64,000 nt of DNA from a virus. Taxonomy: Duplodnaviria > Caudoviricetes. The stretch lies in IMG/VR virus record IMGVR_UViG_3300026094_000002. One strand, given 5' to 3'. Under the pieces are notes generated by a model. The model worked only from the letters and a program-made list of their open reading frames with translations, ran no database searches and had not been told where the DNA came from. The position numbers were made by a program, and so were the translations under genes. Below are positions 5,942 to 56,423 of this stretch, in pieces; within the stretch, counting starts at the first letter, position 1, and each line of letters starts with the position of its first letter.

Positions 5942-6679
5942 TTACTCAAAGTCAAAAAAATCTGATAGTTTTTCAGAATCTATTCTTTTTTTGGCGACAG
6001 CAAAGTAATCGGAGTCTAACTCAATACCTGTGAAATTACGACCGGTGGTGACACAAGCAACACCCGTGGTGCCGCTACCCATTGTATTATCTAAAACAGT
6101 ATCACCCAAATCAGTGTATGTTTTGACTAGATATTGCATTAGTTCTAATGGTTTTTGTGTTGGGTGCAATCCTTTATCTTGTTTACATTTAATAATTGTT
6201 TTGGGATATCTTGAACCATCTGGATTGTCTCTGTGCTTTGATTTTGCACTATTATACACCTCACCAATCTTTGCCGTTTCGGAAGAAAAACCAGAGTATG
6301 GTGTGCTATACCACATTTGAGGATTGTATGTTGGTTTTTTACGGTAGAAAACCGCAATATTCTCGTGGTTCTTCAACGGCATAACTTTTGCACACATTGG
6401 ATTTGTTCCCTGTGGTTTTTCCCAAATCCATTCATAACGGTAGTCGTTGATGTTAGATGCAATCAATGTTGTCGTAAATGGTTGAACACTTGTAAAGACC
6501 ATTGCTGCATTTTCTTTGCACACTCTGTAATAATGTTCCCACAATTTATCGAATGGAATTATACTGTCCCATTTACATGCGGTTGTTCCATAAGGAAGAT
6601 CAACCAAAACCATGTCAATTGAATTATCTGGAATTTCTGCCATCATTTCCAGACATTCACCTTGCATCAAATTTACCAT
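5942..6679 (-). CDS. beta-class N6-A/N4-C DNA methyltransferase (M1)
   Basis: Motif IV DLPY at the N-terminus; HPTQKP; motif I TMGSGTTG; GIELD. Confidence 0.95.
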   Translation of the reverse strand: MVNLMQGECLEMMAEIPDNSIDMVLVDLPYGTTACKWDSIIPFDKLWEHYYRVCKENAAMVFTSVQPFTTTLIASNINDYRYEWIWEKPQGTNPMCAKVMPLKNHENIAVFYRKKPTYNPQMWYSTPYSGFSSETAKIGEVYNSAKSKHRDNPDGSRYPKTIIKCKQDKGLHPTQKPLELMQYLVKTYTDLGDTVLDNTMGSGTTGVACVTTGRNFTGIELDSDYFAVAKKRIDSEKLSDFFDFE

Positions 6680-7227: not shown

Positions 7228-7992
7228 TTACTCAAAGTCAAAGAAATTTGATAGATTGTCTGATCCAATTCTTGCTCTGGCAATCTCAACATATTCAGGA
7301 TCAAGTTCAATACCGATAAAATTTCGATTGAGGTTCGACGCCGCCACGCCGGTAGTTCCAGATCCCATTGTAAAATCCAAAATTGTATCGCCTTCGTCTG
7401 TATAAGTTTTGATAAGATATTCCATCAAAGCCACAGGTTTTTGGGTTGGGTGTAAACCAACTTCGGTGTTAAACTTTTGCCACGAGGATGGGACACGAAG
7501 ATCTTTCAGATTGTTAGTTTTTCTACCTTCAAAGTCACGATAATTTGACGATTTGGATTCAAATGCTACATTATATTTGACCCTATCAAGCCCCGATCCA
7601 GTCCTTGGCTGCATTTGTTTATTATAAGTCCATTTGCCATTACTGAAAACCAAAACAGATTCATGTTCTTTCATAGGTTCTCTTACTGTATTAGCAAAAT
7701 TGCTTCCTCTATTTTTGATCCAAATCCATTCATGACGAAATTTACTAATATTGGAAGTAATTAAAGTTGAAGTAAATGGTTGCGATGCGGTAAAAACCTT
7801 TGCTGCTGTATGTTCGCAAATATATTCAAGCCTATCCCACATTTTCTCTAAATCAATTACAGAATCCCATTTATTTGAAGTGGTACCATAAGGAAGGTCG
7901 GTTAAGACCATATCAACACAGCATCCGCTTTTTTCGTAAATTAGATCAATGCTCTCAAGACAATCGCCCTGCATTAGTGTTATTTCACTCAT
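7228..7992 (-). CDS. beta-class N6-A/N4-C DNA methyltransferase (M2)
   Basis: DLPY, HPTQKP and FTMGSGTTG motifs. Confidence 0.95.
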   Translation of the reverse strand: MSEITLMQGDCLESIDLIYEKSGCCVDMVLTDLPYGTTSNKWDSVIDLEKMWDRLEYICEHTAAKVFTASQPFTSTLITSNISKFRHEWIWIKNRGSNFANTVREPMKEHESVLVFSNGKWTYNKQMQPRTGSGLDRVKYNVAFESKSSNYRDFEGRKTNNLKDLRVPSSWQKFNTEVGLHPTQKPVALMEYLIKTYTDEGDTILDFTMGSGTTGVAASNLNRNFIGIELDPEYVEIARARIGSDNLSNFFDFE

Positions 7993-8713: not shown

Positions 8714-9793
8714 TTATTGTATATTTTGTTTAGTTTTTTCTAAACAATATCTAATAAATTCATCATGTTTATAATCATGAGAACCAGAAAGATACATCAA
8801 ATGATGAAAATTGTGTTCTAGGATAGGCAAACATTCTTTGTAAACAGTTTTTGGGCCTTTATGCAAAATATTTTCTAGTTCATTCAAAATCATTCTTGAT
8901 CTATCTTCAACACGGTGTTCTAAATCATATGATTCATCAATAATCCCATCAAATGTCTTAAACCCTATACTTCGCAAAAAATCTAAGTAACCCATTGTTG
9001 ATAGTATTAAAAAAGGCGTCATTGTGGCAATTGGTTTGATAATTTTTTCTGTTATAAGATATAATTGCTTGTACTCAGTTTCTGGTACTAGTTCAAAAAG
9101 ACTATTATTATATAAATCCATAGATGGGTTTCCATCTTGCCAACCATGAACAGTAGTTTGCTCACCTATCCAATTGTTATGTGCATCTTCGCTGTTGTTG
9201 TGCATAATTATATGAGAATTATCTAAAAGATTGTTCCGTTGTCGTAACTGATTGGCGAGAATTTTTCTATGCGGTCTACAATGTTTAACGACTGTGGTTA
9301 ATAAAAAAAATTTCGAATCATCTCCTTTTTTTATTTTTTCAGATATTGTAGGAAATCTGGAAAAATCATCTGGTAATGGTTTGATATAATTTTTAATATT
9401 TTTAAATGAGTAAAAAAAAGATTTTTTTACAAGATGCGAATCATGTATTAAAAAAATATTAGAAAAAATAATATTTTTATCTATATAAAATAATATTTTC
9501 TTAAATTTCTGCGATGTTAGAAAGATTGTATTATCTATATCTTGATATACCCATAGTTTATTTTTTTTGTTTTTTAAGAACCTGAATATTGATTTAACAC
9601 CGGCATCCGTATTAAATAAATCTTCTAACATATGACAGTCAAATACGACAAGAGCATCGATAAATTCAGGAATTAGGTAACAATTCTCATCATTATCAAA
9701 AAAATTTATATGTTGAAACTTGATTTTATTATTTTCAAATGATTTTAATAAATTTTCTTTGTTATCAGTGTCTGCTTGGACAAGTATTTCCAT
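8714..9793 (-). CDS. glycosyltransferase-like protein (paralog 1)
   Basis: C-terminal ET...TEKIIKP...PF...GFKTFDGIIDESYD; start reassigned to 9793 because a separate small ORF occupies 9795-9944. Confidence 0.6.
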   Translation of the reverse strand: MEILVQADTDNKENLLKSFENNKIKFQHINFFDNDENCYLIPEFIDALVVFDCHMLEDLFNTDAGVKSIFRFLKNKKNKLWVYQDIDNTIFLTSQKFKKILFYIDKNIIFSNIFLIHDSHLVKKSFFYSFKNIKNYIKPLPDDFSRFPTISEKIKKGDDSKFFLLTTVVKHCRPHRKILANQLRQRNNLLDNSHIIMHNNSEDAHNNWIGEQTTVHGWQDGNPSMDLYNNSLFELVPETEYKQLYLITEKIIKPIATMTPFLILSTMGYLDFLRSIGFKTFDGIIDESYDLEHRVEDRSRMILNELENILHKGPKTVYKECLPILEHNFHHLMYLSGSHDYKHDEFIRYCLEKTKQNIQ

Positions 9794-9794
9794 C

Positions 9795-9944
9795 TCACCA
9801 CTCATTTCGCATTGCCTTAATTTCTGCTTTCCACGAACGAAGCAGTAACCGAGGAACACCAACAGCAAGTTCATATAGTGTAGTCCATACAAGAACAGGA
9901 ACAAATATGACTGCAATGTATAAACGGTTCATAATTTTTTTCAT
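9795..9944 (-). CDS. 49-aa membrane peptide
   Basis: MKKIMNRLYIAVIFVPVLVWTTLYELAVGVPRLLLRSWKAEIKAMRNEW; GGAG RBS. Confidence 0.5.
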   Translation of the reverse strand: MKKIMNRLYIAVIFVPVLVWTTLYELAVGVPRLLLRSWKAEIKAMRNEW

Positions 9945-10007: not shown

Positions 10008-10490
10008 TTAATTGGCTAATCTTCGTGTTTCTTCTTCTGCGGCTTTAAGTTCTTCTTCGGTGACTACACCTTCTGCCAATAATCGTTTTCTATTAGCCAA
10101 GTGTTTAGCATCAATATCTTCTTTTGCACCACCGTCATATGGGACTGCGTAACCTTCTTCAACTAAAATTTCAGTTAATAACTTATCACCAATTTTAAAG
10201 TCACCCAATACTCGCCCAAACTTGCCTCGCATATCTTCGCCTTCTTTATTCAAACGAGTACAGAGAATGACATCACCTTCTAATAATTCTCCAACCCTTT
10301 TACCAGCAAGTTTGCCAAATAGTTTTTCTACTCTGTCTAATGTTCTTGACTCTGGTGTATCAATACCCATTATGCGTACTCTTTCATCTCGCAATATGAT
10401 GTCAAATCCTAAATCAATATCAACATCAACAGTATCGCCATCTACAACATTAATTACTTTTGCCCTGTATTCGTACATGATAATCTCCAA
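10008..10490 (-). CDS. thermonuclease (SNase-like)
   Basis: VVDGDTVD...RIMGIDTPES...GKFGRVLG motifs. Confidence 0.9.
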   Translation of the reverse strand: MEIIMYEYRAKVINVVDGDTVDVDIDLGFDIILRDERVRIMGIDTPESRTLDRVEKLFGKLAGKRVGELLEGDVILCTRLNKEGEDMRGKFGRVLGDFKIGDKLLTEILVEEGYAVPYDGGAKEDIDAKHLANRKRLLAEGVVTEEELKAAEEETRRLAN

Positions 10491-35440: not shown

Positions 35441-37495
35441 TTATTTGCTGGTTGCTGTGAATGTGCCATCCCAATCAGATGGCAAATCTTGGGCAAGCAT
35501 AAATTTACAACGCTCTATCCACAAATCATAATAAGCATCCATGGCACCATCAAAACTTCCACACAACTCATTGCATAATGTAATTGTTTCATCAAAGTTT
35601 TTAATGCGATACATCTCTAACATACGATCATGCTTTTCTCTTGCATCAAAATATTCGTCAGGTGTATTTTCGGCGTGTTCTAATACCGTGTAAATTTTTA
35701 ACGGTTTGCTCTTTCCTTTTACTGCTATTTTATCTAACTCCAGATAGAAAAACTGTTTGTATGTTAAATGAGCGGTTTCAGAACCTGTGACTATTCTTAC
35801 GCCATAGGACTTTGATTGTCCTTCTAAACGAGCGGCAACATTAACACTATCACCCAATACATCATAACTGTGACGCTGAGTACTACCAATTTCTCCCATA
35901 TAGGCTTTACCAGTATTAATTCCTACACCCATTCCAATTTGTGGTTTATTTTGTTCTGTCAAATGCTCATTGAACCGATCAACTGCAGATAACATCTTTA
36001 ATGCGGTGGATACAGCGTTTGTAGCATGCATATCGTCATCTATCGGTGCATTGTGAATATGCATGGTTGCATCACCAATGTACTTGATAATCATGGCATT
36101 ACTTTCAAGAACGGGCTTGGATATTGCATCCATATATGAGTTCATCATACGCGTCAAACCTTGAACATCATCACCAAAACTTTCACTTAGAGGAGTAAAT
36201 CCTCGGAGATCAGTCATTACGGTTGTGATTTTCTTTTTTGTGCCGTGTTTGATTAAATCAGGATTGGTCTGAAGTAGTTTTACAACTTGTGGGGAAGCAT
36301 ATCCAGAAAATTGCTTTTTAATTGCTTGTTTTTCTTTAAATTCTTTCACAAAGCGAAGAAATACTGAGTGTAATCCAACAAGAATTAATGCAGCAAGAGG
36401 CATTGTACCATCAAGCATGTACAAATAGTTAGACCAAGCATAATCTACAGCGAATACAAGTGTGGCACTAAGTGCAATCATTCCTATACCCACTACCCAA
36501 TAAGGCGTGAATCTTCCAAGAACAATAACCACCAAGCCTAACGCAAGAGTAGATGCAAGTTCTGCTTGAAATGCCCAGTAAGGACGCTCAATTTGTTCGC
36601 CGTCAATAAGTGTTTGTAAAGTTACTGCTGCGGGTTCGTAATTATATCTTGGTCCTGTTGGGGAGGCTATGATACCACTTATCCCTGCGGCTTGAGCACC
36701 AATGATTACAGTTTTGCCTTGAAACTCTGAAAAGTCAGATTCTGCTGCAGATATGGTGGGGAATTTTTTATTCCATCGTAACCATATTCTTCCATTGGGG
36801 TCTGTGTTTATTATGGGAAACCCGGGAACTCGGACTGCCTCTATTCCCGATCCAGATTCTTTTACTTGATAAGATGGTTGGCCTGTTGCTACTCTAATAA
36901 CTTCTACTCCCAAAGAGGGAAACACCTCGTCTTCTACTCGCATAAGAAGTGGCACTCTGCGAACAACGCCGTCTATCTCAGGAACTGTATTGATAACGCC
37001 CACACCATCTGCTGCTTTTCCTAGCTCTGGAATAGGACCCAAAACGCCTTGCCATTGGAATAGATAGGGCACAGGTTCGCCTATTTTTGCGATGCCTCTT
37101 GGAACAGAGTTTTGACTATACCTCTGTGTGCCTGTTTGTGATATTACTATGCTGTTGTTTTCAAGGGTTTCAGCAAGATACTCATCACCCCCTAACCTGT
37201 CAATTTCTGAAAATAAAATAGGAAGTACAATTACACCTGCCCCATCTTTTCTCAACTGCCATATTATATCTGCTATAGTTTCCCTGCTCCAAGGCCATTG
37301 TCCATATCGTTCTATTGCATCCTCATCAATAGTAACAACGCCAATGTCTTTGGAAACTTGAACGGGATCGGTTTGTTGTAGTAGGTCAAATTGTTTAAGG
37401 CGAAGCGTCTCGGTGATAAACCCATCACTGTAGTGTATAGATAGAATTAAGATTAAGGTTATGAGAGCCGTTGTCCAATGAGTTATCCACTTCAT
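35441..37495 (-). CDS. CHASE2-domain class III adenylate/guanylate cyclase
   Basis: CHASE2 (EDAIERYGQWPWSR, DGVVRRVPL), three TMs, TDLRGFT, KYIGDA, GVGINTG, YDVLGDSVNVAARLEG. Confidence 0.95.
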   Translation of the reverse strand: MKWITHWTTALITLILILSIHYSDGFITETLRLKQFDLLQQTDPVQVSKDIGVVTIDEDAIERYGQWPWSRETIADIIWQLRKDGAGVIVLPILFSEIDRLGGDEYLAETLENNSIVISQTGTQRYSQNSVPRGIAKIGEPVPYLFQWQGVLGPIPELGKAADGVGVINTVPEIDGVVRRVPLLMRVEDEVFPSLGVEVIRVATGQPSYQVKESGSGIEAVRVPGFPIINTDPNGRIWLRWNKKFPTISAAESDFSEFQGKTVIIGAQAAGISGIIASPTGPRYNYEPAAVTLQTLIDGEQIERPYWAFQAELASTLALGLVVIVLGRFTPYWVVGIGMIALSATLVFAVDYAWSNYLYMLDGTMPLAALILVGLHSVFLRFVKEFKEKQAIKKQFSGYASPQVVKLLQTNPDLIKHGTKKKITTVMTDLRGFTPLSESFGDDVQGLTRMMNSYMDAISKPVLESNAMIIKYIGDATMHIHNAPIDDDMHATNAVSTALKMLSAVDRFNEHLTEQNKPQIGMGVGINTGKAYMGEIGSTQRHSYDVLGDSVNVAARLEGQSKSYGVRIVTGSETAHLTYKQFFYLELDKIAVKGKSKPLKIYTVLEHAENTPDEYFDAREKHDRMLEMYRIKNFDETITLCNELCGSFDGAMDAYYDLWIERCKFMLAQDLPSDWDGTFTATSK

Positions 37496-48817: not shown

Positions 48818-49357
48818 TTATGAGAGGAGAGATACTACATTTTCGGTAGTATCTTGTGTAAAGTTTTCTAACTTACTGAATCTTTCATCAAGTGGTTTAA
48901 CATGATCAAGGGCAACCCACTGAATATTTTCAGAAGTCTCTATAATGCGTCTCATACTATTAAGAAAATTATTTGCTCTATGCCGTTCATATTCTTCTAA
49001 ATTTTCAAATTCTGCTGAAAAATCAAATCCACCTAACAATACTATATCACTTACATCTTTTACAAGATGAGCAGCAACCACTTCTTCTTTTTGATCCACT
49101 TCGTCAGAAAATCCACCACCAACGAGATGAACAGATGATGGGCGATTTAAATCACTAAAAAACTTTTCTGGTATGTAAAAGTTGCACTGCTCTTGGAAGT
49201 TTCTGGTAACTAAATCAGATGCACGACGATAATCAAAACAAATTACATTATCAGTGTTAAACATTCTCCAAGTGATATCAGAACCCCATATTGGTCCTAT
49301 CTCTTTAATATCTACTTGTGTTTGATATTGCGGTGTGACAATCCAACTTATATTCAT
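48818..49357 (-). CDS. hypothetical protein
   Basis: Last gene of the overlapping run 48818-53052. Confidence 0.75.
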   Translation of the reverse strand: MNISWIVTPQYQTQVDIKEIGPIWGSDITWRMFNTDNVICFDYRRASDLVTRNFQEQCNFYIPEKFFSDLNRPSSVHLVGGGFSDEVDQKEEVVAAHLVKDVSDIVLLGGFDFSAEFENLEEYERHRANNFLNSMRRIIETSENIQWVALDHVKPLDERFSKLENFTQDTTENVVSLLS

Positions 49358-50391
49358 ACAGACTTCAGTGTTTTCCAGCGATAATCACCTAAACAAATCC
49401 ACCCAAACACATTGTCTTTGCCGGGAGCAGTATTAATAATGAAATCACCTTTTGTTCCAGACCACCCCGGAACTTGATCAGCATGTCCTATTGTATTACG
49501 ACCAACACGAAGGTTCTTTATAGTTGTATTGCCATCAGAATCAATAACTATATCACCTTGACGATTTACGCCTAATGCAATTTCATGCTTTCTATTGCTA
49601 CCAATGAATGCACGGTTGGAAGAAATTTTACCAACAGATATTGACACTTCTTCATCCCATATATTTAAAGACATGTCAGGGGTGTCAGTGTTTACGCCGA
49701 TTCGTCCATTGACTACATGTAAGGTATCAAAAATATCTGCATTGCCTGATACATCTAATGACTTTAGGGTACCAGTTTTTTCTATTTTAGTATCAGTAAT
49801 GCGGCTGGACAATTGATTTCCATCAACCAGTAACTGATCTCCAAGTCGTACATTTGAGAACTCAATTCCGCTATTTTTAGCCGTATCTAATACTTTATCT
49901 ACAGTATCAGTTACAAACCTTTCTCCTAACTGATCAAGTGTTTTGGTGGATACAGTGTCTGCTAAACTTTGCCAACTCTCATTGTCAACGTTTACGCTGC
50001 CAGTCACTGACAAATCTTTTACAGTCACAGATTCAGCATTAATACTTTCAATTGCACGTATAACTCGGGAAACCAATTCATTTTCAACAACTACTGTACC
50101 ATCTAAGACAGTAAGTTCTTTTTCAGTTTTACTTAAGTCTGTAATACCGGGAAATGTTTTCGTGAGAACATCTTGGTTAAGACTTAAACTTTCTCTAATT
50201 ACCTGTGAAACAACCTCACTGTTATCAGTAGATGACATCATCTCCCCTGTCATTCTACTAACAACTTGATTTATAATTGTCTTAAGGTGATTTTGCCATG
50301 TTGGCTGTTGTATAGTTTCAGCAACGTACCCTGATATAACCTGTTTAATTTGGTCTTCTATTGTACGTGCTAGTTGATCTTTATCAATCAT
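49354..50391 (-). CDS. fibre-like structural protein
   Basis: GRIGVNTDTP repeat; C-terminal PGWSGTKGDFIIN.AP....GWIC. Confidence 0.6.
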   Translation of the reverse strand: MIDKDQLARTIEDQIKQVISGYVAETIQQPTWQNHLKTIINQVVSRMTGEMMSSTDNSEVVSQVIRESLSLNQDVLTKTFPGITDLSKTEKELTVLDGTVVVENELVSRVIRAIESINAESVTVKDLSVTGSVNVDNESWQSLADTVSTKTLDQLGERFVTDTVDKVLDTAKNSGIEFSNVRLGDQLLVDGNQLSSRITDTKIEKTGTLKSLDVSGNADIFDTLHVVNGRIGVNTDTPDMSLNIWDEEVSISVGKISSNRAFIGSNRKHEIALGVNRQGDIVIDSDGNTTIKNLRVGRNTIGHADQVPGWSGTKGDFIINTAPGKDNVFGWICLGDYRWKTLKSV

Positions 50392-51307
50392 TTTGTCTCC
50401 ATGTATCTAATGTAACACAATGAAAACCGCCACCAAGTGTCCTGCTGTGTCTTAATTCAAGCGGAATTACATCAAAATTTTTCTTCTCTAATAATGTAAT
50501 TATCTTTTTTTGCAAATTATCAACAATGACTGTGGATGAATCTACGCTTAAACAGTTCATTCCAATCCACTTACTGGCATATGGATAACGATAAAACGCA
50601 CGTGCAGCACAATCATCTATCCATATTTTGTCCCATTCATCAAATACTGCTGGGCAATTTTCTTCAGTTACTCTTTGAGCATTTAACATTACAGTATGAT
50701 CATTTAAAGGAACAATTGTACTGTCTATATGGACACCAGAGTAAAAATTGACTACTTGAATATCTATTTCAGGAAATTGTTCTTTCAACCAATTTGCTGC
50801 GTTTCTATTCCCACTCGGGCTTTCAAGGTATAACCACGTGTCTCCCAATCTGCATATATTGGCGGCGTCTAATGTCATTCCAGAATTTCTTGGCATTTTT
50901 ACAACATCAGCAAAATCGGCAACAAAATCTAGTGCCTCTATTTCTTGATCTCTACATGGATACATCATAGCAGGATCAACAACCTTTTCTCCTGCTACGA
51001 GAAGCCTATCCCGTGGACAATAATTATACATTCCTTCACGAGTGACAAAATCCATTTCATTTGGACGAAGAACATCTACTCCAAGATCTTCTAAAACAAT
51101 ACATAGTTTTTCTAAATCTCTTTCTGTATCACGTACCACCCAATCTGGGACGGGGCCAGATGGTACTGGAGTTGCAGTCCAAGAAGTTTTTTCTGATTCT
51201 TTGGAGAAAACTGAGTCATTAGATGGCCAGTTAGCATGTAATGCAGAACCAACTACCACCTGTTTCAGTTTATCCCATTCATTATATGAATGAACATTGA
51301 TATCCAC
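50384..51307 (-). CDS. amidinotransferase (glycine/inosamine-phosphate family)
   Basis: SYNEWDKLKQVVVG, CPRD, LDAAN, HIDST, RTLGGGFHCVTLD (Asp-His-Cys triad). Confidence 0.9.
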   Translation of the reverse strand: MDINVHSYNEWDKLKQVVVGSALHANWPSNDSVFSKESEKTSWTATPVPSGPVPDWVVRDTERDLEKLCIVLEDLGVDVLRPNEMDFVTREGMYNYCPRDRLLVAGEKVVDPAMMYPCRDQEIEALDFVADFADVVKMPRNSGMTLDAANICRLGDTWLYLESPSGNRNAANWLKEQFPEIDIQVVNFYSGVHIDSTIVPLNDHTVMLNAQRVTEENCPAVFDEWDKIWIDDCAARAFYRYPYASKWIGMNCLSVDSSTVIVDNLQKKIITLLEKKNFDVIPLELRHSRTLGGGFHCVTLDTWRQND

Positions 51308-51308
51308 G

Positions 51309-51833
51309 TTAATCTACAACCCCGGTAATCTGTAATGTATAACGATCTGTGACACCAACATTCGCTGCACTATGAGGAACATCATTTTCCCATATCACAC
51401 CTTCACCTGCTCGCCACTGCAAGATGGGGTTATCATCTACATCAAAATAGTGTCCGCTTTGCCAATCATCAAGGAAAACAACTGCACGTCGAATTTTACT
51501 TGCATCTTCTATATTGTGTAATTTTCTAAACCGGACATAAAGGTCGCTATGCTTAGGTAATGCACATCCCGGAGTCATTCTGTATATTGACCAAGAAAAG
51601 TGTTTCCACGGCAGGTACTCGCGAAATCTGTTCATCCACTCCGGTTCTTCTGATCTCATATCGTACATGTCACCAGTAAATTTTGTTTGTGTATACCCAA
51701 GAGACCGCCACCAAGCCAGTGAGTCAGGATCATTAAATTGTTCATTGTAATATGCGAGCGTTTCGTGACCTTTCCACCAAACTTCTGGAAGTTTAAAACG
51801 AGACCATCTGTCTTTACTTTCTAGTATTTCCAT
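51309..51833 (-). CDS. 2OG-Fe(II) oxygenase / cupin
   Basis: HSD...HSAAN...RYTLQITG facial triad plus Arg. Confidence 0.82.
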   Translation of the reverse strand: MEILESKDRWSRFKLPEVWWKGHETLAYYNEQFNDPDSLAWWRSLGYTQTKFTGDMYDMRSEEPEWMNRFREYLPWKHFSWSIYRMTPGCALPKHSDLYVRFRKLHNIEDASKIRRAVVFLDDWQSGHYFDVDDNPILQWRAGEGVIWENDVPHSAANVGVTDRYTLQITGVVD

Positions 51834-53052
51834 AATGTATTACCTTTATATTATATTTTTCTTCAGTTGCTCGCCATGGGTCAACCACGACACTTCCGGG
51901 AGCAAATTCAAAGTATGCTTCGTCTTCTGCCTCTTCGCCAGTATAACCATAAGTTATTTTTCTGTTATGTGCTAATAATATTACAGCGGGTGAAGCAACA
52001 TCATCAACAACTTCAGTAGTGTCATCTGCCAATGGATCAACATAACAAACAGAACGGCCCAATTCTTTTACGTAATGTCCTACTAATGTTGAATAACTTC
52101 CTATACAATATGGGACATTTGGTTTATAAGATTTTCCATGAATTACAATAGGCAGATCATTATGTTCTTCACTCTGCTGCACCAAAAATTTAGCAAGATT
52201 TTCTGCTTGTCTTTCCCGGGCTGTCATAATTGTATCAAATAGATCATAGCCAAGTTCATATTCTTCTGCCAACCAGCGGAGTGCTATGTTGTCACGTGGA
52301 TGACAAGCCCCTGAATCGCCCATCCCTGCTGTCATATATTTTGGGCCCATTATACGCATTGTACTATTTGCCAATGCATCAGTAACAACATCAACATCGA
52401 TATTACCTATTTTCATAGCACAATCTTGTATCATATTCACAAGGCCAATTTTTGTTGAAATAAATGTATTATAGAAAATTTTAATTGCCTCACACTCATC
52501 CCAAGTGCCAGTGACGTATCTGGGATTGTTTTGCATAATTGGCTGATATATATCGATCAATTTTTGTACTTCAACATCATCTCCACTTTCTGTTCCAATC
52601 ATGATCATTTCAGGGTTAACCATGTCCCATTTGACACTCCCCATAGCGATAAGATATGGATTATAAAATAACCTATGCTTATCATTTAATAATTCAGCAA
52701 AATGTTTGCGTGTTGTGCCGGGCAAAACTGTTGAAATTAGCACAACTTTCTTAGAACTTTCTGCATGTGTATTGACAGAGGTCAGTGCTTCTTTCACTGC
52801 AGAATGATCAAAATCCCGTGGTTCCATATGAGAACTTGGAACACTTCCATCATAGCCCTTATCGTGTGGAGTTGGAACCGCAATAAAAATCCAGTCACTT
52901 TTATTAACTAACTCTTTTATTGATTCACAAATATTGACTGACTGACTTTGACGTGGGTAAATATCGTAACCATAAACCGTATACTGTTCAGCAAAAACTT
53001 CTGCACAGTCTAGGCCCAATTTGCCTAACCCGATAAAACCTATTGAATTCAA
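51814..53052 (-). CDS. UDP-glucose/GDP-mannose 6-dehydrogenase family
   Basis: GLGKLG, AVPTP, STVLPG, YNP, IKIFYN, GDSGACHPRD, KSYKPN. Confidence 0.92.
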   Translation of the reverse strand: MNSIGFIGLGKLGLDCAEVFAEQYTVYGYDIYPRQSQSVNICESIKELVNKSDWIFIAVPTPHDKGYDGSVPSSHMEPRDFDHSAVKEALTSVNTHAESSKKVVLISTVLPGTTRKHFAELLNDKHRLFYNPYLIAMGSVKWDMVNPEMIMIGTESGDDVEVQKLIDIYQPIMQNNPRYVTGTWDECEAIKIFYNTFISTKIGLVNMIQDCAMKIGNIDVDVVTDALANSTMRIMGPKYMTAGMGDSGACHPRDNIALRWLAEEYELGYDLFDTIMTARERQAENLAKFLVQQSEEHNDLPIVIHGKSYKPNVPYCIGSYSTLVGHYVKELGRSVCYVDPLADDTTEVVDDVASPAVILLAHNRKITYGYTGEEAEDEAYFEFAPGSVVVDPWRATEEKYNIKVIHYGNTRK

Positions 53053-53053
53053 A

Positions 53054-54430
53054 ATGACTATACCTCTTGATAACTTATATGATTATATATTCAGTTTGAC
53101 TGGGCACACAAATAAAAACCTAATCATGTACAGATTTGATCCACATGGCTCTAAAAATATAAAAAACTTGACTACGCAAAATCATATTCAGAATATTATG
53201 CTTAACTTAAAATCATCATCAAGAAGCGTCAGGAGTTGGCACCATAAAATACTAATATGTAATGACCAAGAACCATTATATTATACTTTATATGATGGAA
53301 AAACCGAAGAAAAGAAAGAATTATATCAAAATGCTGATTATATACGACATGAAAATTCTTTAGAACAAAAAATAGCAGAAAAGAAAAAAAATATAGATGG
53401 TTCTCCGGAAATAGTTTTTTCCGTGTATGACAAGAAAATTTTATTACATTCTGAAAAAGAAAGTAAAGATTTAGAAAAGTACGAAAAAAATGGATTTGTG
53501 GGTGCGTATTACTGGTCACATGCTTTTATCTCCTTAGATTGGTATCGGTTTGCTGAACATGATGAATATCTTAATTATTCCTCTTTTTCTAATTTCAGTA
53601 AGCATTTTAATATCTATTGCCGAGGATGGTCAGGAGTGAGAGAATATAGACTTAAATTTTTAAGCACAATGATTAAAAATAATATAGACAAATACGCAAA
53701 TATATTTTTCAGTGAGTATAATGACCAGTCACACTTTAGTAATAGTCTATCAAAAACAAAAGAATGGAATATTTCAATAAAAGAAAAAGAATTAATTGAT
53801 AAATCAGAATATATTACAAAAAATAATTCTGACCCTTCATTAAGTGCATCATATTCTGTAGATGACTATAAAAATTCTGCAATTGATGTAGTACTAGAAA
53901 CAGTCTTTGACCAAAATAAAATTTTTCTAACAGAAAAAATCTTGAGACCAATTGCTTGCGGGAAACCTTTTATTTTGGTTTCTGAAAAAAACGCATTACA
54001 ATATTTAAAATCATATGGATTCAAATCATTTGATGGTTTAATTGATGAAAGTTATGACACTATCACAGACCCATCAAAAAGAATGGAAAAAATAATTGAA
54101 ACAATGAAAAAAATATCTAATTTGACACAAAACGAAAAAAATGAATTGTTTTGTAAAATGCATCTGATTGCCGAAGAAAATAAAAAATGGTTTTTTTCGA
54201 ATGATTTTTTTAATTTAATAAAAACCGAATTAAAAACAAATTTGCAACACTCATTAAGTGTGTTAGATAACCCAAAGAACCAGACTGCGAAAGAATTATG
54301 GCTTGTATATCGGTCAAACAGGCTATATAAAAAATATTTGAAAAAAAATGCAAAACATAGGTCTGATCAAATTGTATCTGAATATCCAGAAAGAATAGAA
54401 TTAAGCAAGAAAAATATAGGAATATCTTAA
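53054..54430 (+). CDS. glycosyltransferase-like protein (paralog 4)
   Basis: VVLETVF...LTEKILRPIACGKPF...GFKSFDGLIDESYD; likely start MTIPL at 53054. Confidence 0.62.
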   Translation: MTIPLDNLYDYIFSLTGHTNKNLIMYRFDPHGSKNIKNLTTQNHIQNIMLNLKSSSRSVRSWHHKILICNDQEPLYYTLYDGKTEEKKELYQNADYIRHENSLEQKIAEKKKNIDGSPEIVFSVYDKKILLHSEKESKDLEKYEKNGFVGAYYWSHAFISLDWYRFAEHDEYLNYSSFSNFSKHFNIYCRGWSGVREYRLKFLSTMIKNNIDKYANIFFSEYNDQSHFSNSLSKTKEWNISIKEKELIDKSEYITKNNSDPSLSASYSVDDYKNSAIDVVLETVFDQNKIFLTEKILRPIACGKPFILVSEKNALQYLKSYGFKSFDGLIDESYDTITDPSKRMEKIIETMKKISNLTQNEKNELFCKMHLIAEENKKWFFSNDFFNLIKTELKTNLQHSLSVLDNPKNQTAKELWLVYRSNRLYKKYLKKNAKHRSDQIVSEYPERIELSKKNIGIS

Positions 54431-54786
54431 TACTTTCGTAAAATTCCATCCCATTCAGATACAATATTGCCTTTTTTATAGTCTCGGATTCGTGATTCTA
54501 ATACATCATAAAATGAATCCATTTCTCCTTTAAACTTTCCTCTAAGAGACTCTATTGCTTGCTCACAAAAATCCCAATTCTTTTTGCGATAATTGTTCAT
54601 TAATGCTTTATGCATATCAGCAGTTTGTTTAAGAACAGAAACCTCTTCTAAGGTAACATTTTCCCCACCAATGACACAATAAGCAGTTATCGGCTCTGCA
54701 TCTTCAGCATACTTTATGGTATCCAATTCTAATACCACATACTTCTCAACTATTTCTTGTGGTGGTTCACCAAATATTATTTGCAT
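54427..54786 (-). CDS. stand-alone homolog of the adenylate cyclase C-terminal region
   Basis: LELDTI...HKALMNNYRKKNWD...GEMDSFYD aligns by eye with cyclase LELDKI...HDRMLEMYRIKNFD...GAMDAYYD. Confidence 0.72.
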   Translation of the reverse strand: MQIIFGEPPQEIVEKYVVLELDTIKYAEDAEPITAYCVIGGENVTLEEVSVLKQTADMHKALMNNYRKKNWDFCEQAIESLRGKFKGEMDSFYDVLESRIRDYKKGNIVSEWDGILRKY

Positions 54787-54816: not shown

Positions 54817-55605
54817 ATGTACTTGTCATTTGATTTAATTTCAGATTTACATCTTGAAACTCGAGATGGCTTTAACTGGGATGGACAGCCAACCAGCCAA
54901 TGTTGTGTGGTGGCTGGAGATATTTCTAAAAATATTCAGGATACGGTTTCTTGTCTTACCCATTTGTCCCAATGCTACAAAAAAGTCGTTTATATTGATG
55001 GTAATGCAGAGCATCGTTGGAATTATTCTGATCTTGGTTCAAGTTATCAAACCTTAGTTGAAGAATTGCAAAAAATACCAAATGTTATTTTCCTGCAAGA
55101 TAACATGGTCATAATCAATGGTGTTGCGATAGTCGGTACCAATGGCTGGTGGACATACGACTTCAATCCCAACATGGATTTTGAAAACTCAGTAAAATAC
55201 GCTGTTGATAGATATGACATTAATGTTGGTGATGCAATGACACTACGTGCTATGGCAATTAATGATGCGAATTATCTTGCAAACACTGTCAACCGGTGTC
55301 AGACAATGCCAGATATTAAGAAAATTGTTGTTGTTACACATACTGTTCCTCACGAAATGATTACAAAACACGATGAAGAATTTGACGATGATCTTCAGTA
55401 TAATCTGTTGGGCAATTCATATATTAAACAAATTTTAGAACAAGACACGGAAAGAAAAGTTGATACGTGGTGCTTTGGACATTACCACAAAGATGTTGAT
55501 TCTGTTATTAATAATATCCGATATGTTAATAACTGCTTGGGTGAAAAGGGATCAACTTGGGCCAAGTCTGTTTATCACCCAAAGCGTATTGAAGTAATAA
55601 TTTAA
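54817..55605 (+). CDS. metallophosphoesterase
   Basis: SDLH, AGDI, GNAEH, THTVP, FGHYH. Confidence 0.9.
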   Translation: MYLSFDLISDLHLETRDGFNWDGQPTSQCCVVAGDISKNIQDTVSCLTHLSQCYKKVVYIDGNAEHRWNYSDLGSSYQTLVEELQKIPNVIFLQDNMVIINGVAIVGTNGWWTYDFNPNMDFENSVKYAVDRYDINVGDAMTLRAMAINDANYLANTVNRCQTMPDIKKIVVVTHTVPHEMITKHDEEFDDDLQYNLLGNSYIKQILEQDTERKVDTWCFGHYHKDVDSVINNIRYVNNCLGEKGSTWAKSVYHPKRIEVII

Positions 55606-55916
55606 TCTGCTTCGGGCTCAATTTTAATATTTAAAGGATACCCGTTGCTACGTGCACTTACTGTAATCTCAATGCCCTTTTGTTCTGCAATCTCATATGG
55701 AAGAACTGCCACACACGCAGATCCCGCTTCATGAACTTCTTCAGTAATCTTTTGAGCAGTAGCCTCAGTATAATTAAGATGATTCATCAAACTTTCAACA
55801 ACAAAATCATATGCAGTACTATTGTCATTAATATAAATTAGTTGGTACATTGGTGGCTCACGCAACTCTGTATTAATTTCTACTTTTGTCTCGCTTGATG
55901 CGGATGATGTTGTCAT
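55602..55916 (-). CDS. clpS: Clp adaptor ClpS
   Basis: PPMYQLIYINDN.T..DFVV...EVHEAG...EIAEQK...YPL. Confidence 0.9.
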   Translation of the reverse strand: MTTSSASSETKVEINTELREPPMYQLIYINDNSTAYDFVVESLMNHLNYTEATAQKITEEVHEAGSACVAVLPYEIAEQKGIEITVSARSNGYPLNIKIEPEAD

Positions 55917-55985: not shown

Positions 55986-56423
55986 TTATCCCTTTTGGGT
56001 AATTGCAATAGACTTAGGCTTCATTGTCTCAGGGACAATACGCTCTAAACTAATAGTAAGAATTCCATTCTCAATAACCGCATTATTTACCTCTACATAT
56101 TCGGCAAGCGTAAATGAACGCGTGAAGTCTCTTGATGAAATACCATGGTAAAGATATTCAATATCTTCGTTTTTGTTTTCCTGTCTACCTGTAACAGTTA
56201 GGTGTCCTTCATGGTATTCAATATCTATCTCTTCTTTATTGAAACCAGCAACTGCCACCTGAATTTCATAACGATCTTCATCAACACGAACGATGTTATA
56301 TGGTGGATAATTGCCATTGGAACCAGCGGTATCAACTTGATCCATTACGCGATCAAAAATTCGATCCATTCCAATTGTATTTCTGTAAAACGGTGATAGG
56401 TCTAATGAAGTAATTTTAGTCAT
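55986..56423 (-). CDS. ibpA: small heat shock protein Hsp20 (IbpA-like)
   Basis: YPPYNIV, AVAGF, YLYHGISSRDF, NGILTI. Confidence 0.93.
   Translation of the reverse strand: MTKITSLDLSPFYRNTIGMDRIFDRVMDQVDTAGSNGNYPPYNIVRVDEDRYEIQVAVAGFNKEEIDIEYHEGHLTVTGRQENKNEDIEYLYHGISSRDFTRSFTLAEYVEVNNAVIENGILTISLERIVPETMKPKSIAITQKG

Follow-up and report, generated by a model that had tools for sequence, protein, structure and literature searches.

Organization of the Locus

The 64,000-nt window analyzed here, taken from IMG/VR record IMGVR_UViG_3300026094_000002, carries between positions 48818 and 54430 five minus-strand genes whose ends overlap or abut and one divergent plus-strand gene (Table 1), an arrangement already described in the initial annotation and reproduced by our reading of the open reading frames. 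The dehydrogenase (UGD) and oxygenase (OXY) genes overlap by 20 nt, OXY and the amidinotransferase gene (AMT) are separated by 1 nt, and the AMT/FIB and FIB/unk179 junctions overlap by 8 and 4 nt, respectively. On the other side, the TTG start of UGD (53052) and the probable ATG of the glycosyltransferase-like gene (53054) lie back to back; the longest open reading frame of the latter spans 53021–54430 (+) from a TTG at 53021. Every protein of the module is predicted to be soluble, with no membrane segment found in any of them, and no sugar nucleotidyltransferase, flippase, or polymerase gene lies within the module. The source of the locus is an uncultured giant freshwater phage.

Table 1. Genes of the module and GT-B-like paralogues located in the window
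Feature	Coordinates	Strand	Remarks
GT-B fold glycosyltransferase-like	53054..54430	+	458 aa from probable ATG 53054
UGD-family nucleotide-sugar 6-dehydrogenase	51814..53052	-	412 aa; TTG start; first gene of the operon
Small Fe(II)/2-oxoglutarate oxygenase (OXY)	51309..51833	-	174 aa; H95-x-D97...H154...R164 motif
StrB1-like L-arginine amidinotransferase (AMT)	50384..51307	-	307 aa; GTG start
Fibre-like protein (FIB)	49354..50391	-	345 aa; predicted intertwined homotrimer
unk179	48818..49357	-	179 aa; soluble; final gene of the operon
GT-B-like paralogue	8714..9916	-	A1 profile, G000:53729-54223 (window 8798-9292), E 3.9e-30
GT-B-like paralogue	21125..22150	-	A1 profile, G000:41267-41824, E 1.4e-26
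Weaker GT-B-like paralogue	25689..26687	-	A1 profile, G000:36958-37278, E 2.4e-6

The Amidinotransferase Resembles StrB1

In a phmmer search of PDB sequences, the best solved relative of AMT was StrB1, the L-arginine:inosamine-phosphate amidinotransferase of Streptomyces griseus (PDB ID code 1BWD; E = 6.8e-55), followed by HsvA (3e-24), AGAT (5e-23), and SxtG (2e-20); Pfam PF02274 did not detect it. Residues D147, H193, and C297 align with D179, H227, and C332 of StrB1, bearing out the earlier statement that the Asp/His/Cys triad is retained. H193 and C297 show no variation in either family alignment, and D147 shows none in 43 sequences from the window's clade. D100, D195, and R212, predicted to bind arginine, are likewise kept. 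The two enzymes have the PRD, HxDST, and GGGFHC motifs in common, although the phage enzyme is ∼40 residues shorter (307 vs. 348 aa).

The segment preceding the catalytic His (Y-S-G-V-H) is short and resembles that of StrB1 (Y-A-S-T-H). The two additional residues of HsvA are missing here, as is the “DPNPM” flap of AGAT (PMC4887976), features that together fit a bulky acceptor. Acceptors in the family span glycine to polyamines, and homology alone would not fix the one used here. Unlike StrB1, AMT is phage encoded and linked to UGD and GT-B genes.

More than 7,400 metagenomic relatives of AMT were found at E ≤ 1e-10. In a phylogenetic tree, the window's AMT and a set of aminotransferase-linked sister AMTs form one clade (100/100 support) separate from bacterial homologues. 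The nearest cellular homologues are 34–39% identical and neighbor SbnA/SbnB-like genes and an NRPS-like adenylating protein, a setting that implies amino-acid rather than sugar chemistry and thus counts against a sugar substrate.

Dehydrogenase, Oxygenase, and Glycosyltransferase

The UGD gene matched Pfam PF03721 (7e-16) and PF00984 (3e-16) and phrog_9148 (2e-93); its match to TIGR03026 (5.8e-44, 150 bits) fell under the 189.8-bit NCBIfam cut-off, and Pfam did not detect the C-terminal UDP-binding domain. G8/G10/G13, K191, N195, C250, and D254 are kept in at least 97% of 32 relatives. By sequence, the protein belongs to the UDP-glucose/GDP-mannose dehydrogenase family, with the catalytic Cys, Lys, and Asn present.

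The AF2 model of OXY (pLDDT 95.5) adopts a double-stranded beta-helix fold, and its four motif residues are unvaried in 38 sequences. The model matched 3dkq (Z 15.2), PiuC (13.7), P4H (13.3), SnoN (13.0), AlkB (12.4), and PolD (12.4). That protein prolyl hydroxylases and AlkB appear among the nearest modeled folds would count against a sugar substrate.

The glycosyltransferase-like protein, which has an invariant motif set (DQEP...RxYR...TETVF...HLTEK), matched nothing in Pfam, PHROG, or NCBIfam. In its AF2 model (pLDDT 82.5, pTM 0.81), however, every top Foldseek match was a GT-B enzyme, so that the initial label of “GT-like” can be sharpened to a GT-B fold by structure. The top VIA matches were to T4 beta-glucosyltransferase (Z 11.8; range 11.3–11.8; rmsd 4.4, 273 aligned, 9% identity), followed by Helicobacter pylori alpha1,3-fucosyltransferase (Z 10.6), exostosin and POGLUT (Z of about 10.3–10.5), and T4 alpha-glucosyltransferase (Z 10.3). 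A DNA glucosyltransferase as the closest structural model may speak against a sugar cassette, although sugar- and protein-directed enzymes tie with it within about 1 Z.

The pairing of a 2OG oxygenase with a glycosyltransferase is also the paradigm of base J and TET-GT systems. Accordingly, the cassette might hypermodify DNA for protection from restriction or as a packaging aid: OXY would hydroxylate a base, the BGT-like GT-B would add a UGD-derived uronic sugar, and AMT would add a cationic group. The T4 glucosyltransferase matches of the GT-B model, the AlkB fold match of OXY, UvdE and DNA ligase genes among the neighbors, and a distant amidinotransferase in Campylobacter phages with modified DNA are in line with this reading. 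Yet the 194.5-kb record (CheckV, 56% complete) holds ThyX and neither a ThyA-family dCMP/dUMP hydroxymethylase nor a C5 DNA methyltransferase, and proteins of the GT family are acidic (median net charge -11 over 39 members). T4 BGT ties with fucosyl-, glucuronosyl-, and protein O-glucosyltransferases, and nine GT-B paralogues plus a sugar aminotransferase (below) sit poorly with a decoration of DNA in one or two steps. We therefore regard DNA hypermodification as very unlikely.

The nine GT-B paralogues were found in the genome by an A1 profile search, and three of them adjoin dehydratase/epimerase-family, DegT, and carbamoyltransferase genes. A natural fusion, P0123, joins a UGD (52% identical, 3e-134) to a GT-like C-domain (5e-16) and a methyltransferase; BFVD holds a further 788-aa match annotated as UGD.

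A Conserved Core and a Clade-Specific Fibre Gene

The gene arrangement is far beyond chance, since it recurs in 61 related IMG/VR contigs at 53–66% protein identity, which formed our comparison set. The OXY–AMT pair is present in 61/61 loci, with OXY directly upstream of AMT in 54 and a homing-endonuclease-like gene inserted between them in 7. GT-B was found in 58 loci, that is, in all 58 with upstream sequence, the other 3 being cut off upstream. UGD is present in 50 loci and absent from 11. The fibre-like gene is present in 46, and about 11 of the loci without it do have enough downstream sequence. This neighborhood survey shows strong co-conservation across viral loci of the genes that the initial annotation had grouped, with GT-B, oxygenase, and amidinotransferase as the conserved core.

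The fibre-like protein combines a variable helical N terminus with a conserved C-terminal domain (RVGVNT..P...WDEE...GW.CLG..W; alignment A3). Residues 75–345 were predicted to form a homotrimer with an ipSAE of 0.89, compared with 0.00 for the best of 3 controls; in calibration this mark was reached by 20/30 proteins solved as one-chain pairs and 1/23 solved as single chains, and the fibre run departed from that calibration in using a custom alignment and three copies. Between runs, at least 85% of contacts agreed, and partner pLDDT was at least 80. In the Atlas, the protein was placed in clusters of exclusively viral members, with weak leads to PTL_trimer and Peptidase_S74, and it matched nothing in Pfam, PDB, or phage records. 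The original “fibre” label thus gains a predicted trimer and weak leads, but no family match.

The last gene, unk179, is limited to a window-like subclass (13/61 loci). Its sole lead, a feature match in the Atlas to MptE-like/WaaZ clusters (0.85–0.89), falls below the trusted level, and no PDB profile matched it.

A Sister Clade Links the Module to a Sugar Aminotransferase

The sister clade of AMTs comprises 36 loci, 29 of which carry a shrunken DegT sugar aminotransferase (mini-DegT) upstream of AMT, directly abutting it in most and with one gene between in 7. OXY occurs in 34 of these loci, UGD in 30, GT-B in 30, and the fibre gene in 1. In one locus (L174), an operon of overlapping genes comprises UGD, a TobZ/NovN-like carbamoyltransferase (1.6e-48), OXY, mini-DegT, AMT, p221, and GT-B. 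Because almost the entire sister clade lacks the fibre gene, as do about 11 loci of the comparison set with enough downstream sequence, we consider this gene a clade-specific neighbor rather than a fixed part.

The window's genome has its own mini-DegT about 112 kb from the module, where neighboring genes encode an SDR dehydratase/epimerase-family protein, a sulfotransferase, a methyltransferase, a radical SAM protein, and a GT2. This mini-DegT keeps the SF..SK lysine motif and is 39% identical (E 7e-41) to ORF305 of Synechococcus phage S-SCSM2R. Mini-DegT is present in 3/3 complete module-bearing genomes and in S-SCSM2R and absent from phages HTVC008M and Bellamy, both of which lack an amidinotransferase. 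Loci of the window's own clade lack an adjacent aminotransferase, and the amine step of any proposed route is therefore borrowed from the sister clade and the distant locus.

These data bear on whether the fibre itself is the substrate, with OXY hydroxylating Pro, Lys, Asp, or Asn of the trimer, the GT-B enzyme glycosylating the new hydroxyl, and AMT converting lysine to homoarginine. Hydroxylation followed by glycosylation of protein is known from collagen, Skp1, and plant HRGP systems, and known amidinotransferases, against this reading, act on small molecules in a buried active site. The overlap between the two genes couples translation of the fibre gene to that of AMT, GT-B genes flank the fibre gene on both sides in the larger subclass, and certain Pro, Lys, Asn, and Asp residues in the C-terminal domain do not vary across the fibre family. 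Among the close folds of OXY are prolyl 4-hydroxylases from bacteria and algae as well as PHD2 (Z 12–13), and the S-SCSM2R virion proteome holds an AGAT-like amidinotransferase and a 2OG oxygenase (PMC12801897). Nevertheless, the loci that lack the fibre gene despite sufficient downstream sequence, the sister clade's retention of OXY, AMT, and GT-B along with a sugar aminotransferase and UGD, and the UGD–GT fusion, which points to a nucleotide-sugar donor relationship, make direct fibre modification unlikely.

Comparison with Known Phages and Sugar Pathways

S-SCSM2R is the only cultured phage we found with an oxygenase (ORF308; 30% identical to OXY) directly upstream of a related AMT (33%). 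Its ORF305–310 hold mini-DegT, radical SAM, GT, OXY, AMT, and GT2 genes in one row. This AMT, however, sits on a long, poorly placed branch, the row lacks UGD and fibre genes, and its glycosyltransferases are of GT2/GT25 type rather than TEK-motif GT-B. The S-SCSM2R report (BMC Biol 2025, PMC12801897) is alone in naming such a gene, calling it by annotation an “antibiotic synthesis gene.”

This name raises the possibility of a free product: a soluble aminoglycoside-like or guanidino metabolite, or rerouted host arginine/ornithine metabolism, with nothing attached to virion or host. The StsC-type aminotransferase, StrB1-type AMT, TobZ-type carbamoyltransferase, GT-B, 2OG oxygenase, and radical SAM genes do mirror aminoglycoside tailoring, and cellular AMT homologues sit in natural-product-like clusters. 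We nonetheless judge a free product improbable: the surveyed flanks hold no cyclitol synthase, exporter, or resistance gene, a structural, predicted trimer-forming gene lies inside the operon, and nine GT-B paralogues with sulfo-, carbamoyl-, and methyltransferases better fit a polymeric glycan.

In pelagimyophages and cyanomyophages such as HTVC008M and Bellamy, a related UGD gene (∼67% DNA identity across 470 nt) is grouped with genes for glycosyltransferases, a carbamoyltransferase, and a methyltransferase. These LPS-like or “host recognition cluster” sugar genes have been read as modifying the host O-chain (PMC7029224). HTVC008M and Melnitz have other genes in common with the window's genome. 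The HTVC008M/Bellamy clusters differ in lacking an amidinotransferase and mini-DegT and in pairing UGD with a NadE-like amidotransferase.

The streptidine route runs through a dehydrogenase, the StsC aminotransferase, a kinase, and StrB1. The sister-clade pairing of AMT with a DegT/StsC-family aminotransferase suggests the same logic of oxidation, transamination, and amidination; in the phage, a 2OG oxygenase takes the place of the NAD dehydrogenase as partner, and the module has no kinase or cyclitol genes. In Pseudomonas aeruginosa, WbpA/WbpB/WbpE/WbpD produce UDP-2,3-diacetamido-2,3-dideoxy-uronic acids through a UGD-family C6 dehydrogenase, ring oxidation, a DegT aminotransferase, and N-capping, followed by GT transfer. 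The phage route proposed below would follow the same order of step types, except that a 2OG oxygenase would replace the NAD oxidoreductase in ring oxidation and the new amine would be capped with an amidino group from arginine instead of an acetyl or acetamidino group.

A Proposed Route to a Guanidino Sugar

We consider it probable that the cassette is a phage nucleotide-sugar tailoring and transfer route that yields a guanidino sugar; we infer its chemical steps, their order, the donor sugar, and the acceptor. The UGD-family enzyme would oxidize an NDP-hexose or NDP-HexNAc at C6, giving the uronic acid, a dispensable step given that about one in five loci lacks UGD. The small Fe/2OG oxygenase would then oxidize a ring position, either creating a keto group for transamination or hydroxylating the product. 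A mini-DegT-type aminotransferase would install a primary amine, onto which AMT would move the amidino group of L-arginine via a Cys297 thio-adduct, giving the guanidino sugar and ornithine. Finally, the divergent GT-B enzyme would transfer the sugar to its acceptor. By analogy, such logic would copy streptidine synthesis and the WbpA/B/E route, with amidination replacing acetylation.

The initial annotation had envisaged a phage pathway to a guanidino-bearing, hydroxylated, uronic-acid glycan. Co-conservation, the sister-clade aminotransferase, the UGD–GT fusion, and the nine GT-B paralogues favor its sugar-tailoring element, but UGD and the fibre gene are not fixed parts, and “hydroxylated” may be replaced by a keto intermediate.

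The product, putatively a guanidino uronic sugar, may be destined for the virion, the host surface, or DNA. In order of likelihood, the acceptor would be a virion protein (the co-encoded fibre, a predicted trimer, or another), a host envelope glycan, and DNA. Mimivirus fibrils and the mycobacteriophage capsid and tail offer precedents in which virus-encoded sugar-making enzymes and glycosyltransferases decorate the virus's own surface fibres in the host cytoplasm; here, by comparison, virion attachment is suggested by the position of the fibre gene only. We know of no guanidino sugar in virus-encoded virion glycosylation, or indeed in any glycan. If the proposed route is correct, the guanidino sugar that the phage builds and attaches would carry a positive charge, and such chemistry has yet to be demonstrated for any virus.

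Gene Layout and Viral Context

The viral record that holds the window runs to 194.5 kb (completeness 56%, CheckV), and the complete genomes bearing the same module are 329–357 kb long (n = 3). Several genes have their closest relatives in Methylophilales phage Melnitz and Pelagibacter phage HTVC008M, as with a 684-aa cyclase that is 57% identical to its Melnitz counterpart and 45% to that of HTVC008M. The metagenomes matching the stretch at the DNA level are lake-water, “aquatic,” and soil-labeled; the sequencing runs listed as matching it included no RNA. Taken together, the size of the relatives, the Melnitz- and HTVC008M-like genes, and the metagenome sources indicate a jumbo myophage from aquatic habitats, not yet cultured, that carries pelagimyophage-like genes.

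Between 48818 and 53052, ORF calls returned five minus-strand genes that overlap by 20, 8, and 4 nt, the remaining junction being a 1-nt gap, confirming the packed operon and divergent glycosyltransferase (GT)-like gene described in the initial annotation. The operon encodes a nucleotide-sugar dehydrogenase (UGD), an oxygenase (OXY), an amidinotransferase (AMT), a fiber-like protein (FIB), and a 179-aa protein. UGD starts at a TTG (53052, minus strand) and the GT-like gene at an ATG (53054, plus strand), a single base separating the two divergent start codons, an abutment that recurs in related loci; the promoter and ribosome-binding site of each should therefore lie inside the coding sequence of the other. 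Scans for sigma-70–like promoters and terminators gave nothing beyond shuffled expectation, and no T4 late promoter (TATAAATA) was found near the module. UvdE, downstream of the module, has strong sigma-70–like hexamers of its own and is probably a separate transcription unit. The module proteins contain no membrane segments.

Just upstream of the module lies a minus-strand proteostasis set of ClpS, HSP20, and AAA+ genes, and related loci also carry ClpP. The product of a 119-aa ORF beside the GT-like gene falls into one cluster with the C-terminal tails of CHASE2-type adenylate/guanylate cyclases (670–690 aa) from related loci.

Features of the module, its surroundings in the window, and related loci
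Feature	Position or loci	Strand	Match
GT-like gene	53054-54430	+	
UGD	51814-53052	-	
OXY	51309-51833	-	
AMT	50384-51307	-	
FIB	49354-50391	-	
179-aa ORF	48818-49357	-	
119-aa ORF	54427-54786	-	
ClpS adaptor	55602-55916	-	Pfam 1.6e-20
HSP20 small heat-shock protein	55986-56423	-	3.7e-21
AAA+ ClpX/Lon-like protein, 401 aa	56796-58001	-	phrog_4339
684-aa cyclase	35441-37495	-	
GT-B paralogues	8714-9916, 21125-22150, 25689-26687		
N6/N4 DNA methyltransferase	5942-6679	-	PF01555 2.5e-25
N6/N4 DNA methyltransferase	7228-7992	-	PF01555 1.8e-33
Staphylococcal-nuclease-like gene	10008-10490	-	
Extra AMT paralogues	L004 11212-12779; L026 5750-8906; L028 11240-14390		
176-aa NUMOD3 protein between OXY and AMT	L007, L008, L009, L026, L027, L061, L062		
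286-aa endonuclease-I-like protein splitting UGD into 355-aa and 205-aa pieces	L031, L032, L063		

Module Enzymes

The initial annotation had called an amidinotransferase with an intact Asp/His/Cys triad, a 2OG-Fe(II) oxygenase, a nucleotide-sugar dehydrogenase, and a GT-like gene, and each of these calls held. By phmmer against PDB sequences, AMT (307 aa) matched StrB1 (6.8e-55, in two stretches covering residues 6–126 and 145–304), HsvA (3e-24), AGAT (5e-23), and SxtG (2e-20), and its sequence places it in the AGAT/StrB1 family as a putative enzyme with the guanidino-group–modifying fold. D147, H193, and C297 align with StrB1 D179, H227, and C332; H193 and C297 never vary in either family alignment, nor does D147 within the window’s clade, and the motifs PRD, HxDST, and GGGFHC are in place. 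Ahead of His193, AMT has a short segment like that of StrB1, and the AGAT “300-flap,” which narrows the active site for glycine (PMC4887976), is absent. Pfam gave no match to AMT even at E ≤ 10, which we attribute to insensitivity of the PF02274 model to this branch; PF02274 is precomputed on a few cluster representatives close to AMT. Its relatives number more than 7,400 metagenome proteins.

UGD (412 aa) matches PF03721 (7e-16, N-terminal domain), PF00984 (3e-16, central domain), and phrog_9148, and conserves G8/G10/G13 (GxGxxG), K191, N195, C250, and D254, as expected for a member of the UDP-glucose/GDP-mannose dehydrogenase family with a Rossmann domain and a central domain bearing the catalytic Cys and Lys/Asn. 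It nevertheless scored below the cut-off of TIGR03026 (150.5 against 189.8 bits) and far under those of the UDP-glucose 6-dehydrogenase equivalog models in NCBIfam, and Pfam reported no C-terminal UDP-binding domain (PF03720). UGD is thus a divergent family member whose sugar these models do not specify.

OXY (174 aa) was modeled as a double-stranded beta-helix (pLDDT 95.5) with Z scores of 12–15 against many Fe/2OG oxygenases, including PiuC-like enzymes, prolyl hydroxylases, SnoN, AlkB, and PolD. Together with the invariant H95-x-D97, H154, and R164 (the iron triad and the basic residue for the C5 carboxylate of 2OG), the model supports a predicted Fe(II)/2-oxoglutarate–dependent oxygenase, whose fold does not tell whether it acts on sugar, protein, or nucleic acid. 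A match to Pfam Asp_Arg_Hydrox (7e-4) fell under the gathering score. CP220 gp085, encoded upstream of that phage’s amidinotransferase, showed no BLAST similarity to OXY.

The GT-like protein has no family match, but its AF2 model (pTM 0.81) has two Rossmann-like domains and is that of a predicted GT-B fold glycosyltransferase: all significant Foldseek matches were GT-B enzymes, with VIA Z scores of 9–11.8 over residues 2–405. An invariant TEK motif sits in the C-domain, where, by analogy with GT10 biochemistry, it presumably binds the donor. A CsgE match to the C terminus (8.5e-4) was below cut-off and judged spurious. The top VIA match, T4 beta-glucosyltransferase (BGT; Z 11.8, 9% identity), is the resemblance that speaks for DNA as the acceptor of the sugar, although H. 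pylori fucosyltransferase, exostosin, POGLUT, and T4 alpha-glucosyltransferase are nearly tied with it (Z 10.3–10.6). Arguing against DNA, the GT family is acidic, and the 194.5-kb, 56% complete record contains ThyX and no ThyA-family (PF00303) or C5-methylase (PF00145) gene. The literature that we searched held nothing relevant on guanidino hypermodification of DNA.

Conservation of the Module

The initial annotation had suggested a survey of AMT neighborhoods, and this found the genes co-conserved across viruses. AMT is encoded in 61 IMG/VR loci (53–66% identity), all with OXY, which lies directly upstream in 54 and is separated from AMT by a NUMOD-type homing-endonuclease gene in the other 7. 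The GT-B gene is divergent and upstream in 58/58 loci with enough sequence. UGD is present in 50/61, and where it is absent GT-B abuts OXY. Downstream genes are more variable: the fiber-like gene is found in 46/61 loci, a 243-aa ORF (c7) stands between AMT and the fiber gene in 35/61, the 179-aa ORF follows the fiber gene in 13/61, and in many loci another GT-B paralogue comes shortly after the fiber gene. These counts define a conserved core of GT-B, OXY, and AMT. Genes for ClpP, a desaturase, isocitrate lyase, and TctA make up an assorted auxiliary set in the flanks.

In some relatives, one or two additional, longer AMT paralogues (375–423 aa) lie immediately beyond the fiber gene, adjoined by a 145-aa protein with a below-cut-off match to the arginyl-tRNA-protein transferase C-terminal domain (1.4e-3). 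These paralogues group with ORF266 of the cultured Synechococcus phage S-SCSM2R, an ORF that neighbors KdsA and KdsB and has been reported from the virion proteome (PMC12801897). We rejected the Kdo link suggested by KdsA and KdsB beside this second amidinotransferase, neither gene being in the window’s record. The whole phage module also occurs on five “bacterial” MAG contigs (L074–L078; 54–60% identity) labeled Bacteroidetes, Haliscomenobacter, Terrimicrobiaceae, and Legionella; most probably these are phage sequences that binning assigned to MAGs.

Cellular homologues of AMT, 34–39% identical, occur in 75 bacterial loci (L079–L153), collected with a single peptide pattern to which StrB1-type “HCAT” sequences do not conform and so giving a partial cellular picture. 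A ∼1,416-aa protein joining an AMP-binding domain to hexapeptide repeats follows the homologue in 47/75, SbnA-like (PALP) and SbnB-like (ornithine cyclodeaminase) genes often precede it, and a phosphopantetheinyl transferase is nearby; in cyanobacteria, Halieaceae, and others, these loci look like a widespread, uncharacterized guanidino-amino-acid natural-product cluster. Such neighbors (SbnA/SbnB-like, NRPS-like adenylating, and phosphopantetheinyl transferase genes) imply amino-acid chemistry and count against a sugar route for the viral enzyme. The bacterial homologues are without OXY or GT partners, and in the AMT tree, which excludes StrB1, the window’s clade and a sister clade of 36 viral loci are joined with support of 100/100, apart from the bacterial sequences.

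Links to Sugar Chemistry

In the sister clade, a shrunken DegT sugar aminotransferase (mini-DegT) is encoded upstream of AMT in 29 of the 36 loci, abutting it in most, alongside OXY (34), UGD (30), and GT-B (30). One locus reached by the mini-DegT search (L174) has UGD, a TobZ/NovN-like carbamoyltransferase, OXY, mini-DegT, AMT, a 221-aa ORF, and GT-B in a single overlapping operon. All three complete module-bearing genomes encode mini-DegT, whereas HTVC008M and Bellamy lack both it and AMT. Between 118 and 130 kb, the window’s record carries a 206-aa mini-DegT, located at G000:124721–125248 and accompanied by genes for an SDR-family protein, a sulfotransferase, a methyltransferase, a radical SAM protein, and a GT2; this mini-DegT is 39% identical to S-SCSM2R ORF305, which lies three genes upstream of an OXY–AMT pair homologous to that of the window. 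At 145–156 kb, a full DegT aminotransferase, a separate SDR dehydratase/epimerase-family gene, and a carbamoyltransferase lie near three tandem GT-B paralogues (150.4–154.0 kb), which an 805-aa ORF on the opposite strand also adjoins. UGD and the GT-like family are joined outright in the metagenome protein P0123, where a UGD (52% identical to the window’s) is fused with the C-terminal domain seen in GT-like proteins and also with a methyltransferase, and BFVD returned a 788-aa UGD-annotated match to the GT-like model.

The TEK-motif GT-B family has nine paralogues in this one record (G000:C1 36958–161709). The first of those in the window is flanked by two N6/N4 DNA methyltransferases and a staphylococcal-nuclease–like gene.

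The initial annotation read the cluster as a pathway for a guanidino-bearing, hydroxylated uronic-acid glycan. That reading is partly supported: co-conservation, mini-DegT coupling, and the UGD–GT fusion favor it, and every chemical step is one that we infer. The route would comprise an optional C6 oxidation, ring oxidation by the 2OG enzyme OXY, transamination, arginine-dependent amidination through an adduct on AMT Cys297, and transfer by a GT-B enzyme. Streptidine synthesis and the WbpA/B/E/D route parallel this order of steps.

Fiber-Like Protein and Candidate Acceptors

Residues 75–345 of FIB (345 aa) were predicted to form an intertwined homotrimer with ipSAE 0.89, against at most 0.00 for three controls. 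In calibration, this mark was attained by 20 of the 30 proteins solved as pairs of one chain and by 1 of the 23 solved as single chains; the trimer run departed from the calibration setup in its custom alignment and three copies. Contacts extend along residues 79–345, at least 85% of them are shared between runs, and pLDDT is at least 80; the model thus points to a homotrimeric architecture like that of phage tail or whisker fibers. FIB matched nothing in Pfam, PHROGs, the PDB, or phage records, and its Atlas leads to phage trimer and S74 clusters were weak (PTL_trimer 0.92; Peptidase_S74 TM 0.39). Neither FIB nor the GT-like protein had a tblastn match among 50,697 phage records. For both, and for the 179-aa protein and c7, Pfam, PHROGs, and NCBIfam gave nothing usable, and PDB profile searches with these four and OXY gave nothing significant. 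An Atlas lead from the 179-aa protein to MptE-like/WaaZ (0.85–0.89) was not confirmed, the GGG stretch in the window’s copy is not conserved, and c7 had no detectable relation to this protein (hhalign probability 1.3).

A fiber gene within the operon, soluble enzymes, and the S-SCSM2R virion proteome, in which both an amidinotransferase and a 2OG oxygenase were detected (PMC12801897), favor the virion as acceptor, and the interpretation published for the sugar genes of pelagimyophages favors the host surface (PMC7029224). A specific version of the virion reading, in which a cationic guanidino (amidino-N) uronic sugar is made and then attached by GT-B enzymes to the phage’s own trimeric fiber, is one that we put forward tentatively and consider rather unlikely as a whole.

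Discussion

Sugar islands of cyanophages and pelagimyophages are already known, and those of large aquatic phages are usually dismissed as “LPS genes” without known purpose. To our knowledge, guanidino (amidino-N) uronic sugars are not a known class in any glycan. An “inosamine amidinotransferase” gene has been published in one cyanophage, as an annotation only (PMC12801897). In the literature searched we found neither the conserved GT-B/OXY/AMT core nor the abundance of the AMT family (>7,400 relatives), the sister form with its coupled aminotransferase, the UGD–GT fusion, or the guanidino-sugar model.

The cassette offers concrete, testable chemistry, the arginine-derived amidination of an amino sugar, in a small, soluble core where three conserved enzymes are joined by an aminotransferase encoded at a distance and, optionally, by a dehydrogenase, and its enzymes could be tools for putting guanidino groups on sugars. 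If confirmed, the product would be a new sugar class for glycobiology, a new case of aminoglycoside-like tailoring logic in viruses, and a handle on whether such islands target virions, host surfaces, or DNA. If the fiber does carry such a cationic sugar, uncultured freshwater and marine jumbo phages would possess a charge-tuned, enzymatically decorated adsorption organelle.
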